DNA of 64,000 nt, from NCBI GenBank assembly GCA_041613315.1, contig JBFJHJ010000002.1, forward strand, positions 55,756-119,755, given 5' to 3'. The position numbers were made by a program, and so were the translations under genes. This DNA comes from Gemmatimonadales bacterium (GTDB lineage Bacteria > Gemmatimonadota > Gemmatimonadetes > Gemmatimonadales > GWC2-71-9). Within the stretch, counting starts at the first letter, position 1. Every line of letters starts with the position of its first letter. This document shows positions 58,406 to 64,000 of this stretch, piece after piece. The notes under the pieces were generated by a model. The model made no database searches. It saw nothing but the letters and a program-made list of their open reading frames with translations, and was not told the DNA's origin.

Positions 58406-60571
58406 ATGCACGGCACACGGGCGGCAAGGCGTGGGCTCGCGGCAGCGGCCGCGCTCGCATTGGGATGGGCGGGTCCCGTGGGGGCCCAGCGCCCCCCGTG
58501 CCCCGAACCGGCGCGCACCACGGTGAATCAAGTGGACGACTATCACGGGGTCCGCGTGGCGGACCCGTACCGATCACTGGAGGATGTCGACGCCCCGGAC
58601 ACGCGAGCGTGGATCGACGCGCAGAATTGCGTCACGTTCCGCTACTTGGAAGGGATCCCGGAGCGTGAGGAGCTCCGCAGCCGGCTCACCCAGCTGTGGA
58701 ACTACGCCAGGTACGGTACGCCGTTCGAGAAAGGCGGCCGGTATTTCTTCTTCAAGAACGACGGCCTCCAGAACCAGTCGGTCCTGTACACCCAAATGGG
58801 CCTCGCCGCCGAACCGACGGTGCTCCTGGACCCGAACGGACTGAGCGAGGACGGAACGGTCGCGCTCACGGCCCTCGCCGTGACCGAAGACGCTCGGTTC
58901 CTGGCGTACGGCACCGCCGCCAGCGGCTCGGACTGGCAGGAGTTCCGAGTCCGAGACGTGGCGTCCGGCCGGGACCGGCCCGACCGGCTCCGCTGGATCA
59001 AGTTCTCGGGCGCGTCCTGGACCCACGACGGCGTCGGGTTCTTCTACAGCCGGTACCCACGGCCGGTGGGCGCCGACACGCTGCAGTCGGCCAACCGCGA
59101 TCAGAAGCTCTACTATCACCGCCTCGGACAGGACCAGTCACGGGACGTCCTCATCTACGAGCGGCCGGACCAGCCCGAGTGGGGGTTCAGCGGAGAGGTG
59201 ACCCACGACGGTCGCTATCTCGTGGTCCACGTGTGGCATGGGACCGATCGCCGGAATCGGGTCTACTATAAGGAAATAGGGGACCCCGCCCGGCCACGGC
59301 TGGACGCCCGCATGATCCGGCTGCTCGACAACTTCGACGCCAGCTACACCTTCGTGGGGAACGACGGGCCGGTCTTCCACTTCCTGACCGACCTGGACGC
59401 GCCGCGGGGGCGGCTCGTCGCCGTGGATACGCGGCGGCCCGACCGTGCCACTTGGCGTACCATCGTGCCGGAAGACCGTGATGTACTGACGAGCGTTCGC
59501 ATCGTTCACCGGACCTTCGTCGCGGAGTACCTCCGTGACGCGCGCTCGCGTGTCCGGCTCTTTGGGCTGGACGGCGCACCCCGCGGCGAGGTGCCGCTCC
59601 CCGCGCTCGGCACCGTCGGCGCTCTCACGGGGGAGTTCGCCGACGACGAGATGTTCTTCGCCTTCACGTCGTTTCTCTACCCCACGACGATCTTCCGGCA
59701 CGACTTCCGAACCGGTGCGACGTCGGTGTTCAAGGCGCCGGAGATCGACGTCGACGCTGACCGGTATGAGACGGTACAGGTGTTCTACACGAGCAAGGAC
59801 GGCGCCCGCGTGCCGATGTTCATCACGCACCGCAAGGGGATCGGCCGCGACGGGTCCAATCCGACCTACCTGTACGGCTACGGGGGGTTCAACATCAGCA
59901 TCACGCCGAGCTTCTCGGCCAGCAACCTCGTCTGGCTCGAGCGCGGCGGCATTTACGCCGTCGCCAACCTGCGGGGCGGGGGCGAGTACGGCGAGGAGTG
60001 GCACCGGGCTGGGATGCTCGACAACAAGCAGAATGTTTTCGATGATTTCATCGCAGCCGCCGAGTACTTGATCGCCGAGCGCTACACGTCGGCCAACAAG
60101 CTGGCGATCGGCGGCGCGTCCAACGGCGGGCTCCTGATCGGCGCCGTGCTCAACCAGCGCCCCGACCTCTTCGGTGCGGCGTTGCCGGCCGTCGGCGTGA
60201 TGGACATGCTCCGGTTTCACAAGTTCACGATCGGGTGGGCGTGGGTGTCCGACTACGGCTCACCCGACGATCCCAAGCAGTTCGAGACCCTGCGGGCGTA
60301 CTCGCCGTACCACAACATCCGGTCCGGCGCCGCGTACCCGGCGGTGCTGGTCACCACGGCTGACCACGACGACCGCGTCGTACCCGGCCACTCGTTCAAG
60401 TACGCCGCGCGCCTGCAGACCGCGCAGGGAGGGGCCGCGCCGATTCTGATCCGAATCGAGACCAAAGCGGGGCATGGAGCGGGCAAACCGATCGCCAAGC
60501 TGATCGAGGAGCAAGCGGATCGCTGGGCGTTCCTCATTGCCAACCTCGGGATGAGATCCATGGTCCCGTAG
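58406..60571 (+). CDS. Prolyl oligopeptidase (S9A), secreted
   Basis: ADPYR.LED, YGYGGF, GASNGG, DDRV, AGHG; signal peptide. Confidence 0.96.
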   Translation: MHGTRAARRGLAAAAALALGWAGPVGAQRPPCPEPARTTVNQVDDYHGVRVADPYRSLEDVDAPDTRAWIDAQNCVTFRYLEGIPEREELRSRLTQLWNYARYGTPFEKGGRYFFFKNDGLQNQSVLYTQMGLAAEPTVLLDPNGLSEDGTVALTALAVTEDARFLAYGTAASGSDWQEFRVRDVASGRDRPDRLRWIKFSGASWTHDGVGFFYSRYPRPVGADTLQSANRDQKLYYHRLGQDQSRDVLIYERPDQPEWGFSGEVTHDGRYLVVHVWHGTDRRNRVYYKEIGDPARPRLDARMIRLLDNFDASYTFVGNDGPVFHFLTDLDAPRGRLVAVDTRRPDRATWRTIVPEDRDVLTSVRIVHRTFVAEYLRDARSRVRLFGLDGAPRGEVPLPALGTVGALTGEFADDEMFFAFTSFLYPTTIFRHDFRTGATSVFKAPEIDVDADRYETVQVFYTSKDGARVPMFITHRKGIGRDGSNPTYLYGYGGFNISITPSFSASNLVWLERGGIYAVANLRGGGEYGEEWHRAGMLDNKQNVFDDFIAAAEYLIAERYTSANKLAIGGASNGGLLIGAVLNQRPDLFGAALPAVGVMDMLRFHKFTIGWAWVSDYGSPDDPKQFETLRAYSPYHNIRSGAAYPAVLVTTADHDDRVVPGHSFKYAARLQTAQGGAAPILIRIETKAGHGAGKPIAKLIEEQADRWAFLIANLGMRSMVP

Positions 60572-60631: not shown

Positions 60632-61450
60632 CTAGTTGATCCGTGGGTTCGGGTACGGCGGCACCCGCACGAGCCCGGGGATCCCAAACACCCGGGCAAT
60701 CCCGATCACGAATCCAATGTTCGCGACGCCGTCACCCCAGCGGTCCAGCCGGGTGGTGACCCCGAAGTCGACCACGCTCGCGTTGGAGATCTGCCATCGG
60801 GTGCCGAGCTCGGCCCAGACGCGGACTTCGGTGCCACCCGCAGGGAACTCGGCATAGACGTCGCCCAACACGCTCTTGCTGAAAAGCCCGATGGGATAAT
60901 CGAACGCGAGCCCCGCGATCCAGAAATCTCCGCCGTCGGCGGTGGTCGCCCACGTGTAACCGCCGTTGGCGTGTAGCCGCCCCCGCCCAAAGCCTCGCGT
61001 GAGCATGCCCTTGAGCCGCCCGCCGACGTCGCTCCGACCGACGTCGCCGGCGCCGGGGGCAACGACATCGCCCCGCACGGCGAGGGCGGGCGCCACCGCG
61101 CCTTCCTGGTTCAGATTGAACAGCACGTGCGCACCGAACTCCTCGAGGCCGCCGGTCGAGAGTCCGGCAGCCCGCTCCCACGCCGGGTGCAGCTCGATGC
61201 CCACCTGCCAATTCCTGGCGATTCCCGTCTTGACCTCCAGCAACCCCGCCACCGCGTAGGTCCCGCCTTCGGCAAGCCGCGTCTCCGTACCGATCTCCCA
61301 TTCCCACTCCAGGTACTTGAGGGGGTACGCGTCCTCGACGCGGATGGGCCGGTCGGGGTCGGCGGAGCGGAAGTCCTCCTGGGCCGCTGCCGGGCGCACG
61401 GCCGCCACCGCTGCCGCGAGCAGCCCCGCCATCACGAGGGTCGGCTTCAT
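60632..61450 (-). CDS. Putative outer-membrane beta-barrel/transporter
   Basis: Signal peptide, DRPIRVEDAYP, alternating amphipathic beta-strands. Confidence 0.7.
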   Translation of the reverse strand: MKPTLVMAGLLAAAVAAVRPAAAQEDFRSADPDRPIRVEDAYPLKYLEWEWEIGTETRLAEGGTYAVAGLLEVKTGIARNWQVGIELHPAWERAAGLSTGGLEEFGAHVLFNLNQEGAVAPALAVRGDVVAPGAGDVGRSDVGGRLKGMLTRGFGRGRLHANGGYTWATTADGGDFWIAGLAFDYPIGLFSKSVLGDVYAEFPAGGTEVRVWAELGTRWQISNASVVDFGVTTRLDRWGDGVANIGFVIGIARVFGIPGLVRVPPYPNPRIN

Positions 61451-61451
61451 G

Positions 61452-62534
61452 TCAGGGCTTCTCCGGATGCCGGTGTGCCGGCGGCGGTTCGTCGTGCTTC
61501 ATGCCGCTATGGTCCATGGGCGGCATGGCGGCGTCCGGGTGCCCTTGAGGCAGCCAGCGGCCGTCCGGCAGCTGGGTTGGTACCGTCATGGCCGACATGG
61601 GCATGTGTTGGTGCGCCTCCGCGGGGAGCGGCGGGGGAATGACCCAGCCCTGGTTGGCGTAGAGCATCTGTCGCAGCATGCGATCGATCTCCCGCCCTTT
61701 CGCGTCGCGCGGAATGCGCTCGTCCGCCATCACGTCATTTACCACGTCGTGCATCATGTGCAGGTTGTCGAAGATGTGCGCCGCCGCCGGAAGCATCGCC
61801 CCGAACGTCGGCGCGACTTCGGCGGTGAGAGGCATGTAGGCGGGTGGATTCGCCAGCACCGAGTCCTTGAAGACCCGAATGACCCGGTCGAGCGTGCGGC
61901 GCCGCGTCTCGGGGTCCCCTTCCATCAGTGCCTCGTATACCGCCGCGTGGTGCCAGTGATACGCCCAGAGGATGCCGTTGACCGACGGGTACTTTTTCAC
62001 GAACGCTTCGGCCCACGTACCCCCGGCCAACATGAACGCGTGGCCGTAGCCGCGCGTCGAGAAGGCGGAGCCGGCGTTGGACAGATAGTAGGCGATCGCC
62101 CGCTCGCCGGCGGCCCGCTTGTCCACCACGCGATCGTCGGTCAGGATGTCGTACAGCTGCGTGTGCAGCATGTGCGTCCAGTCCATCGCCGCGCCCGTCC
62201 GGTACGCGACCTTCGACCAGTTGGGCGCGATGATCTCCGCCGGCGGCTCGAAGGTGGGCGGGCTCGCCACGTAACGCCGGATCTGCGCCTCCAGCGAGCG
62301 CACCTGCTCTCGCGCGTCCGGACCGTCGTTGAGCAGCACCTCGTAGACGCCGAAGTGGGCGAAGTGGGCGGCGTAAAAGCTCCGCGCCGCCTCGGGATAC
62401 GTGTCGTAAAACTCGAAGTTGTACGACGCCGGAAGGCGGAACTGCGCGTTCCGCTGCACGATCTGCCCGTCCGCAACGCCGGTCCAGACGAGCAGGACGA
62501 GCGCGGCGACGGCCCCTGGCCGTGTGATGCTCAT
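61452..62534 (-). CDS. Secreted helical protein with four HxxH repeats and Met/His-rich tail (putative metal-binding)
   Basis: GAGGAGG RBS; signal peptide; HFAH, HMLH, HWHH, HMMH; tail HQHMPMSAM..MPPMDHSGMKH. Confidence 0.85.
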   Translation of the reverse strand: MSITRPGAVAALVLLVWTGVADGQIVQRNAQFRLPASYNFEFYDTYPEAARSFYAAHFAHFGVYEVLLNDGPDAREQVRSLEAQIRRYVASPPTFEPPAEIIAPNWSKVAYRTGAAMDWTHMLHTQLYDILTDDRVVDKRAAGERAIAYYLSNAGSAFSTRGYGHAFMLAGGTWAEAFVKKYPSVNGILWAYHWHHAAVYEALMEGDPETRRRTLDRVIRVFKDSVLANPPAYMPLTAEVAPTFGAMLPAAAHIFDNLHMMHDVVNDVMADERIPRDAKGREIDRMLRQMLYANQGWVIPPPLPAEAHQHMPMSAMTVPTQLPDGRWLPQGHPDAAMPPMDHSGMKHDEPPPAHRHPEKP

Positions 62535-62594
62535 GCGGGTGTGACCTCCTCGCAGCTGCCGAAAAGCGATAGTCTGTTGAACGCCGTTGCGGGA

Positions 62595-62990
62595 CTAGGC
62601 CACGAAGCGGGGAGGGGGGAGGGGAGGCGCGCCGGTCGGGGATCCCGTGTCATCGGCGGTCCAGGCAATCCGGATCGCCGTCAGCTCCGGCTGATCACCG
62701 CCGGAGTACCGGGCTGCCAACGCCACGGTGGCATTGGCGCAGGGCGCGGCGACCCCACACATGGCGCAATGCGGACAGGGCTCCGGCTCGGGCGCGTGGG
62801 CCACGGCCGCGTCGGGGACCGCGTGGCCCGCGTGGTGCGCGGCGGCCTCGTGTTGGCGTGCACGGCACTCGGTTTCGCCGCCCGCCATCCATCCGGGCGA
62901 AACCGCGAGCAGCAGCATGGTCATCGCCGGGAGGGCGGCGACCGCGCGGGCGGCTCGCGAGCGACGCGAAGCGACGAATCCTAGGCGCAT
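62595..62990 (-). CDS. DUF2946/CruR/CutF-like Cys/His leader peptide
   Basis: Basic plus hydrophobic N-terminus, HEAAAHHAGH, CPHCAMC..C, C-terminal GAPPLPPPR. Confidence 0.65.
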   Translation of the reverse strand: MRLGFVASRRSRAARAVAALPAMTMLLLAVSPGWMAGGETECRARQHEAAAHHAGHAVPDAAVAHAPEPEPCPHCAMCGVAAPCANATVALAARYSGGDQPELTAIRIAWTADDTGSPTGAPPLPPPRFVA

Positions 62991-63089: not shown

Positions 63090-63536
63090 ATGCTCCGTCT
63101 GCTGGCTCTGACTGCGGCCGCTGTGCTGGTCGCCGGTCCCACCGCCGCACAGACCCCGGCCACGCCCGTCGCAACCGTTCAGGCGTTCCACACCGCACTG
63201 GCCGCCGGCGACTCCAGTGGCGCGCTGGCGCTCCTCGCCCCGGAGGTCACGGTGTTCGAGAGCGGCGGCGGGGAGACGCTCGCCGAGTTCCGGAGCCACC
63301 ACCTCGCCGCCGACATCGAGTTCGCCAAAGGCACGACCAGAGAGGTCACGAACCAGCGGTTGGGAACGGCCGGCGAGATCGCCTGGGTCCTGAGCGAGAC
63401 CCGGACCACCGGCAGTTTCCGCGGCCGCGACATCGACAGCCGTGGCGTCGAGACGATGGTGTTGCGGCGCACCCGGGACGGCTGGCGGATCGTGCATATC
63501 CACTGGTCGTCCAGGCGCACGCCGTCGGGTGGCTGA
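63090..63536 (+). CDS. Secreted NTF2/SnoaL-like (DUF4440-type) protein
   Basis: AAGGA RBS, signal peptide, FHTALAAGD, SHHLAAD, WRIVHIHWSS. Confidence 0.82.
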   Translation: MLRLLALTAAAVLVAGPTAAQTPATPVATVQAFHTALAAGDSSGALALLAPEVTVFESGGGETLAEFRSHHLAADIEFAKGTTREVTNQRLGTAGEIAWVLSETRTTGSFRGRDIDSRGVETMVLRRTRDGWRIVHIHWSSRRTPSGG

Positions 63537-63556: not shown

Positions 63557-64000
63557 TCAGCGCGCTCCCTGCAGCTTCAACAGCTGGGCGTTGATCGCCA
63601 CGATCACCGTCGACAGGGACATGAACACGGCGCCGACGGCAGGGGAGAGCAAGATCCCGACGCTCGCGAACACACCGGCGGCGGCCGGGATCGCGACCGC
63701 GTTGTAGCCCGTCGCCCACCAGAGGTTCTGCACCATTTTCCGGTACGTGGCGCGGGCCAACTCTACGATGGCCGCCGCATCGCGCGGGTCCGACCGCACG
63801 AGCACGATGTCGGCTGACTCCACGGCCACGTCGGTCCCGGCGCCGATCGCGATCCCCACGTCGGCGGTGACGAGGGCAGGTGCATCGTTCACGCCGTCTC
63901 CCACCATAGCGACCGTGAGGCCCCGGCCTTTCACCTCTTCGATCTTCGCCGCCTTCTGGTCCGGTAGGACCTCGGCGAAGTAGTCGTCGAGTCCCAGCTC
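63557..64000 (-). CDS. Copper-translocating P1B-type ATPase (P1B-3/CopB-like), C-terminal part only
   Basis: [24 protein letters not shown] and MSLST..N signatures. Starts outside the window. Confidence 0.92.

Follow-up and report, generated by a model that had tools for sequence, protein, structure and literature searches.

In the stretch of DNA analyzed here (the window; 64,000 nt from a Gemmatimonadales bacterium of the GTDB lineage GWC2-71-9, assembly GCA_041613315.1, contig JBFJHJ010000002.1, with positions given as window positions unless marked otherwise), a 131-aa leader open reading frame (ORF) resembling the copper-responsive leader CutF of Rhodobacter capsulatus precedes two genes, one encoding an exported all-helical protein of 360 aa and the other a predicted outer-membrane barrel of 272 aa. 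On balance, it is probable that this leader senses copper and switches on the barrel and the helical protein, the latter acting as a six-histidine cap, for copper detoxification. The type of switch is already known; the barrel–cap pair is the uncharacterized part.

The leader ORF is as described in an earlier note made from the letters of the window (the sequence-only reading), with a hydrophobic N-terminus, the motif CPHCAMC at residues 72–78, and the C-terminal end GAPPLPPPRFVA. It harbors histidines at positions 47, 52, 53, 56, 65, and 74 and cysteines at positions 42, 72, 75, 78, and 84, and it terminates in PPLPPPRFVA, placing PP inside the last 15 residues. The ATG of the 360-aa gene lies at 62534, 60 nt past the leader stop, and the 272-aa gene begins 1 nt past the stop of the 360-aa gene. 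A search of the locus for a sigma-70 promoter or a relevant terminator found none.

The 360-aa protein served to collect related loci: of 217 found in genomes and 313 found in metagenomes, the best 80 each were taken. Together with the window these amount to 161 loci, 130 of which have at least 500 nt upstream. The relatives of this genome are Gemmatimonadota, and the helical gene is present in 50 of the 201 genomes of the phylum that were searched, a count that includes the window's own genome and the unpublished G157. A fixed leader rule (an ORF of at least 80 aa with PP within the last 10 residues and two Cys 25–70 residues from the end) selects an upstream ORF in 81 of the 130 loci versus 3 of 130 on the opposite strand, two of the 81 picks (L003 and L096) being in the wrong frame by inspection. 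A PPP rule combined with a profile assigns a leader to 85 of the 130 loci, each time ahead of the first gene; the conserved leader for which the sequence-only reading had proposed a check is thus present. The fixed rule selects an ORF irrespective of gene order: 49/77 loci with the helical gene first, 22/38 with the barrel gene first, and 10/15 with no barrel in view. The leader precedes whichever cargo gene is first, the behavior expected of a cis-acting element.

The anatomy of the leader was described from 50 non-redundant PPP leaders drawn from 81, chosen on PPP and two Cys in that region and retaining L044 (probably in the wrong frame) and L102 (truncated). Their mean column identity is 18% (alignment of 48 sequences), yet the spacing between the last Cys and PPP is fixed at 39–42 aa in 46 of 50, with 41 in the window (C84 to P125). 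All 50 have PPP 2–7 residues before the stop, with R, Q, or K as the next residue in 47. A Cx4C or Cx5C motif is found in 49 leaders, while CxxC, put forward as the sensor by the sequence-only reading, is found in 23, and its role as the conserved sensor was not borne out. The linker with the His cluster contains at least three His in 49/50, and a hydrophobic N-terminal 12-mer (mean of at least 2.0) is present in 43/49. The leader stop is separated from the next gene by 35–121 nt in the relatives. The leader profile has one good match in this genome, the window leader itself (E 2.9e-14), whose sequence is part of the profile.

Two characterized leaders provide the frame for comparison. CutF contains C69xxxC73 and ends in P109EPEGPPPRL118, with 41 aa from C73 to P114; in addition to its signal, its function requires the Cys motif and PPP as well as a stem-loop covering the cutO Shine–Dalgarno sequence (SD) (PMC8456105, PMC9973294, bioRxiv 10.1101/2025.02.05.636593). 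It stalls with copper against elongation factor P (EF-P) and is copper-induced (PMC9973294, bioRxiv 10.1101/2025.02.05.636593). CruR of Bordetella pertussis, a DUF2946/PF11162 protein, heads an importer and is switched off by copper, with termination by Rho (PMC9426467), and its arrest needs the Arg of a RAPP motif (PMC12992588). The leader in the window shares with CutF a length below 150 aa, a likely export signal, an upstream Cys, a Cys pair followed after 41 aa by a terminal PPPR, a short gap to the next gene, a predicted masked SD, and the presence of EF-P, for which this genome carries an efp gene. PPPR is CutF's own motif, given that CutF ends in PEPEGPPPRL, so the proposal of a new, non-RAPP arrest motif does not hold. 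In contrast to the CxxxC of CutF, the leaders described here have Cx4–5C, with CxxC in about half; their predicted anti-SD lies in the last codons of the leader, whereas the CutF stem-loop is placed between genes; and the cargo is a barrel and a helical protein in Gemmatimonadota rather than a multicopper oxidase. CruR is likewise an exported leader with CxxC ~45 aa before a Pro–Pro motif and ahead of an outer-membrane gene. However, RAPP is missing here (RAPP or RGPP occurs in 1/50 leaders, and the window has GAPP), and the gap is 60 nt compared with 162 nt in CruR.

The CutF-like rule of PMC9973294 comprises a length below 150 aa, PP in the last 15 residues, a Sec signal, a same-strand gene within 1000 nt, and a Cys/His motif, alongside recovery in jackhmmer clusters. 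On the sequence features, among which the Sec signal is a likely one, the window leader falls within this rule-based definition and is not a member of Pfam DUF2946: the DUF2946 profile search suggested in the sequence-only reading gave no match to the window protein, and nothing in Pfam or NCBIfam matches it. The main texts of PMC9973294, PMC9426467, and PMC12992588 do not contain the word "gemmatimonad", although the protein lists of PMC9973294 may hold such leaders. A literature search joining Gemmatimonadota, copper, leader peptide, and stalling returned nothing.

The codons of the terminal Pro–Pro–Arg were proposed from the sequence to pair with the downstream SD, and CCTCCCCGC (62607–62615) does pair with GCGAGGAGG (62545–62553) at 8 of 9 positions. 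Taken by itself, this match is weak because Pro–Pro–Arg codons alone force 6–7 matches out of 9; the chance of at least 8 is ~4%, an estimate that uses Pro weights from the genome and assumed Arg weights. The middle Pro codon of the 50 leaders is CCT in 34, CCG in 12, CCA in 4, and CCC in none. For comparison, CCT is used at a rate of 9% in the first genes, 11% at other places in the leaders, and 6% at the equivalent position in the genome's PPP runs. The excess holds in three subgroups (16/22, 9/9, and 9/19). CCA is as rare as CCT yet is not enriched at this position, which argues against mere rare-codon pausing. The bias is as expected if the middle Pro codon pairs with the downstream SD. 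Pairing was also predicted for 44 junctions, six of the 50 having been dropped for doubtful start codons (L025, L032, L034, L056, L102, and L135). The SD is predicted to pair with the 3′ end of the leader with a mean probability of 0.69, exceeding 0.5 in 32/44, compared with a mean of 0.46 for swapped junctions. Masking the footprint of a stalled ribosome lowers the predicted SD pairing from 0.84 to 0.62 in the family and from 0.82 to 0.49 in the window, although masking any stretch lowers pairing somewhat. In the window, the predicted SD pairing is 0.59 versus 0.36 after recoding, and the minimum-energy structure holds a CCUCC/GGAGG helix, which the centroid structure lacks.

One subfamily (L009, L016, L035, L038, L086, L095, L101, L124–L127, and L136), mostly Longimicrobiales where named, has a leader divergent from NosR and ApbE genes. 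Its first gene often begins with TTG ~45 nt past the leader stop, behind a near-perfect long hairpin.

In the most likely scenario, drawn by analogy with CutF, the leader is exported during its synthesis. With PPP in the ribosome, the 41-residue spacer would place the Cys cluster just outside the membrane, where copper bound to the exported His/Cys region would hold the ribosome at the terminal PPP against the action of EF-P. The stalled ribosome would open the pairing between the leader codons and the SD, and the unmasked SD would start synthesis of the cap, with the barrel following by coupling. Induction by copper would result.

Several observations weigh against such a switch. The SD is predicted to pair with the PPP codons themselves at a probability above 0.5 in just 18/44 junctions (8 after synonymous recoding); in others it pairs via the last codons and the stop, and in some not at all. 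CCT is also common where SD–PPP pairing is not predicted (14/26 versus 15/18, p 0.057). Of 200 shuffles, 197 fold better than the window junction (z +1.83); all 30 synonymous recodings are more stable than it is, and its SD pairing (0.66) is no better than that of swapped junctions (0.62). No compensatory changes were detected at any of 10 pairs in a 21-sequence subfamily, though an 8-bp anti-SD/SD helix is conserved there. The pairing proposed in the sequence-only reading thus stands at the level of codon selection in the family (CCT in 34/50), while the weak window fold and the missing compensatory changes do not support it. The leader is lacking in 45/130 loci, including L001, L002, and L005, which rank among the nearest cargo relatives. 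DUF2946 is the family matched by most leader relatives, with E ≤0.5 in 5/48 and a best value of 2.9e-4. Furthermore, 43 of 64 leader-bearing loci have no metal gene in flanks of up to 4 kb, and the p-values overstate significance because the loci are related.

The first cargo protein is modeled as all-helical, with a predicted local distance difference test score (pLDDT) of 89.4. It is internally duplicated (29% over 99 aa, E 3e-14; profile probability 98.7%), and six histidines, H60, H121, H124, H193, H259, and H262, three per repeat, are 98–100% kept in 105 near and 43 distant relatives, accompanied by conserved Asp/Glu. Its profile matches 407 clusters at 50% identity. No Pfam or NCBIfam family was found for it, no PDB sequence matched (best E 0.048), and an atlas search returned unnamed clusters only. 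The structural model has no Foldseek match at E 0.001, with a best VIA Z of 5.2, which does not prove a new fold; tyrosinase, hemocyanin, and hemerythrin are not among the fold matches listed. DUF305/CopM and SMBP are periplasmic His-rich helical metal binders. The 360-aa protein resembles them as an exported helical bundle with His pairs, and both occur as neighbors of the module. In contrast to them, it is larger, duplicated, and predicted to bind a barrel. A relationship to DUF305 was considered and rejected, the profile probability against a neighboring DUF305 protein being 1.5%. In P0180, P0131, P0188, and P0177, the helical domain shares a chain with cytochrome c, in two cases with DUF2231, or with a PQQ-type propeller, which hints at a redox role.

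The 272-aa protein is modeled as a 12-stranded barrel (pLDDT 93.7). Its closest structural relatives are FapF (PDB 5o65; Z 24.8, root-mean-square deviation (rmsd) 2.3 Å, 219 residues aligned) and the COG4313 channel of Pseudomonas putida (4rl8; Z 22.5, rmsd 2.7 Å, 218 aligned), both likewise 12-stranded with an N-terminal segment. The shared fold shows no function. At 12% identity, both differ from the barrel described here, which goes together with a six-His helical protein, either separate or in the same chain. PcoB/CopB (7pge), an outer-membrane barrel in copper loci and a possible functional analogue, is a far weaker match (Z 13.4, rmsd 4.0 Å, 184 aligned), and its Pfam family was not hit. 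PF13557 is weakly matched by 19/91 barrel relatives (best 8.8e-7) and by 32–34% of the members of the nearest atlas clusters, whereas the window barrel matches no Pfam or NCBIfam family, PF13557 included. A literature search joining COG4313, copper, and outer membrane gave only unrelated items, and one for a His-rich bundle paired with a barrel yielded a single review. The sequence-only reading had assigned the leader an uncharacterized two-gene envelope cargo, and this is supported by a predicted barrel and a helical protein without a family match.

The pairing of the two cargo genes is obligate in that the barrel is present in 88 of the 89 loci long enough to tell. Both domains occur in one chain in 16 of 149 new representatives, and the 10 that are near full length all have the barrel first; L056 and L065 are also barrel-first fusions, both with leaders. 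The predicted complex of the two window proteins scores 0.91, while the best of three controls scores 0.01. This mark is reached by 116/157 solved and 2/215 mismatched pairs, a rough calibration for which own alignments were used. The runs share at least 84% of contacts, with a partner pLDDT of at least 91. The predicted interface is formed by the N-terminal segment, short turns, and C-terminal tail of the barrel together with the N-terminus of the cap, and the ends joined in the natural fusions are the ends located at this interface. The contact face of the barrel is read as periplasmic because of general barrel topology. Together, the modeling supports binding of the barrel and the helical protein to each other but does not show it.

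Copper as the signal is suggested by the neighborhood. P1B ATPases are encoded in 24/161 loci (25 ORFs, of which 13 have CPH, 5 CPC, and 7 no motif seen) and CusA-like pumps in 17; other neighbors include NosR (12), SnoaL-like proteins (10), ApbE (8), and SMBP (6), as well as CopC/D, DUF305, and cupredoxin. CPH together with YN and MSxST is the signature of copper-exporting P1B-3 ATPases. The Cu-ATPase reported 0.6 kb from the leader is indeed a P1B piece, at 567 nt, but only a 147-aa fragment, and the SnoaL-like gene, absent from the sequence-only reading, intervenes; the YN and MSLST motifs of the fragment resemble those of CPH-type ATPases that adjoin related loci. In the 101 loci that extend 1.5 kb upstream (64 leader-bearing and 37 leaderless), a metal neighbor within flanks of up to 4 kb accompanies 21/64 leader-bearing and 16/37 leaderless loci. 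The copper context of the sequence-only reading is accordingly retained for part of the loci, in which the metal neighbors are mostly of copper type, and not for the 43 leader-bearing ones mentioned above; copper is likely rather than certain because only 21/64 leader-bearing loci have a metal neighbor. The neighbors and the conserved histidines suggest that the channel and cap would bind or move periplasmic copper, contributing to detoxification alongside CopB/CusA-type exporters. The sign of the response (on with copper) is read from the CutF-type motif and the exporter neighbors, which leaves an uptake reading open.

In that alternative, which appears rather unlikely, the leader would have the opposite, CruR-like sign, stalling when copper is scarce and being released by copper, and the channel and cap would form an uptake or storage module. 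Uptake would fit an outer-membrane channel that has a metal-binding partner, and CruR does head an importer (PMC9426467). In addition, the divergent NosR (12 loci) and ApbE (8 loci) genes of one subfamily belong to the pathway of the copper enzyme N2O reductase, and the window GAPP lies 44 residues past CPHC, near the 45 of CruR, although CxxC occurs in just 23/50 relatives. However, the Arg needed for CruR arrest is missing, the spacing and PPPR match those of copper-induced CutF, and most metal neighbors are exporters. Moreover, a true RAPP leader in this genome heads a separate ZnuA/ABC-3 uptake operon.

It is distinctly improbable that the leader senses another metal (Zn, Ni, Co, or Ag) or the periplasmic disulfide state, with the six-His protein being a dinuclear metalloenzyme made in step with the supply of its cofactor. 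CutF-like proteins may sense metals besides copper. The absence of CxxC from 27/50 leaders and of metal neighbors from two-thirds of the leader-bearing loci (43/64) is compatible with this, as are the six invariant His (three per repeat) with conserved Asp/Glu, which would suit a two-metal site, and the fusion of one representative to cytochrome c and of two to DUF2231. In contrast, the adjoining metal genes are mostly of copper types (13 CPH ATPases, CopC/D, cupredoxin, and DUF305), Met-rich tails point to copper as a general rule, and tyrosinase, hemocyanin, and hemerythrin do not appear among the listed fold matches (best Z 5.2). It is very improbable that the small ORF has no cis role, encoding an ordinary metal chaperone for export or persisting as a dispensable relic, with its CCUCC/GGAGG match following from proline codons. 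In favor of this view, the leader is absent in 45/130 loci and decayed in L003, which has an apparent frameshifted remnant, the window fold is weak, and 6–7/9 matches are automatic. Against it, the leader tracks whichever gene is first, its Cys-to-PPP spacing is fixed although the sequence is conserved at only 18%, and the enrichment at one position concerns CCT but not CCA, which is just as rare.

The copper-induced switch thus remains the favored reading. A more specific version, put forward tentatively and at somewhat less than even likelihood, is an outer-membrane copper device in which a FapF/COG4313-type barrel is capped by a duplicated six-His protein of unsolved fold, a two-metal site traps or redox-processes copper at the pore, and the stall codons of the leader double as the anti-SD. 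To our knowledge, copper passage across the outer membrane is poorly understood outside Proteobacteria. The barrel and cap would be a concrete two-protein candidate for this passage, with a testable interface and six candidate ligands. A CutF-type switch with the same 41-residue spacing would also be extended to a phylum not named in the main texts of the CutF and CruR surveys. One genome carries both a PPPR leader, before the module, and a RAPP leader, before an importer of zinc type, so that any role of the motif in setting the sign could be tested directly.

The features of the locus are listed in Table 1.

Table 1. Positions of the leader, its parts, the cargo genes, and adjacent genes in the window.
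Feature	Position	Strand	Basis
CutF-like leader ORF, 131 aa	62595..62990	-	ORF, leader rule, conservation, leader profile
Likely Sec signal peptide (aa 1-37), basic and then hydrophobic	62880..62990	-	sequence; cleavage site by eye
His cluster, aa 47-56, after near-invariant Cys42	62823..62852	-	leader alignment
Cys cluster C72-C75-C78-C84; conserved part Cx5C (78-84)	62739..62777	-	leader alignment
PPPR codons CCC CCT CCC CGC; predicted stall site and anti-Shine–Dalgarno	62607..62618	-	codon bias, pairing
Shine–Dalgarno region of the 360-aa gene, GCGAGGAGG, 10 nt before ATG	62545..62553	-	sequence, pairing
360-aa exported all-helical protein, two-fold internal repeat, His/Met-rich tail; predicted periplasmic cap	61452..62534	-	
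272-aa predicted 12-stranded outer-membrane barrel, FapF/COG4313 (Phenol_MetA_deg)-like fold	60632..61450	-	
Divergent exported SnoaL/DUF4440-like protein, HH motif	63090..63536	+	
Heavy-metal P1B ATPase, C-terminal 147 aa, cut by contig end; YN and MSLST motifs	63557..64000	-	

The SnoaL-like protein, which has an SHH motif, lies beside the module in the 10 loci counted above, and P0129 and P0158 carry it in one chain with the helical protein; it is possibly a third copper-handling part.

The second leader of this genome (G000:C8 ~67350–71000; L163:856–4478, + strand) contains Cys/His and a RAPP end, HAVRAPPAR. It is located 82 nt before a gene for a 423-aa exported porin-like protein, followed by a ZnuA-family binding protein and an ABC-3 permease. 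Most other matches of the genome-wide scan for leader motifs were judged by eye to be wrong-frame noise.

A divergent response regulator is found in 5/37 leaderless and 0/64 leader-bearing loci (Fisher p 0.0055, uncorrected for kinship). Some leaderless copies (L048, L054, L068, L070, and L076; L075) are oriented divergently from genes for a response regulator and a sensor kinase, or they lie behind a BlaI/CopY-type repressor and M56 peptidase, suggesting, at the level of gene order, a swap between translational and transcriptional control. L052 and L153 represent an AT-rich locus labeled Bacteroidetes, where the helical and barrel genes occur with a CPC-type ATPase but no leader. Finally, a prolyl oligopeptidase gene (58406–60571, + strand) converges on the module in the window, and such genes also lie near the module in several loci of the distant clade (L043, L049, L065–L067, and L080).

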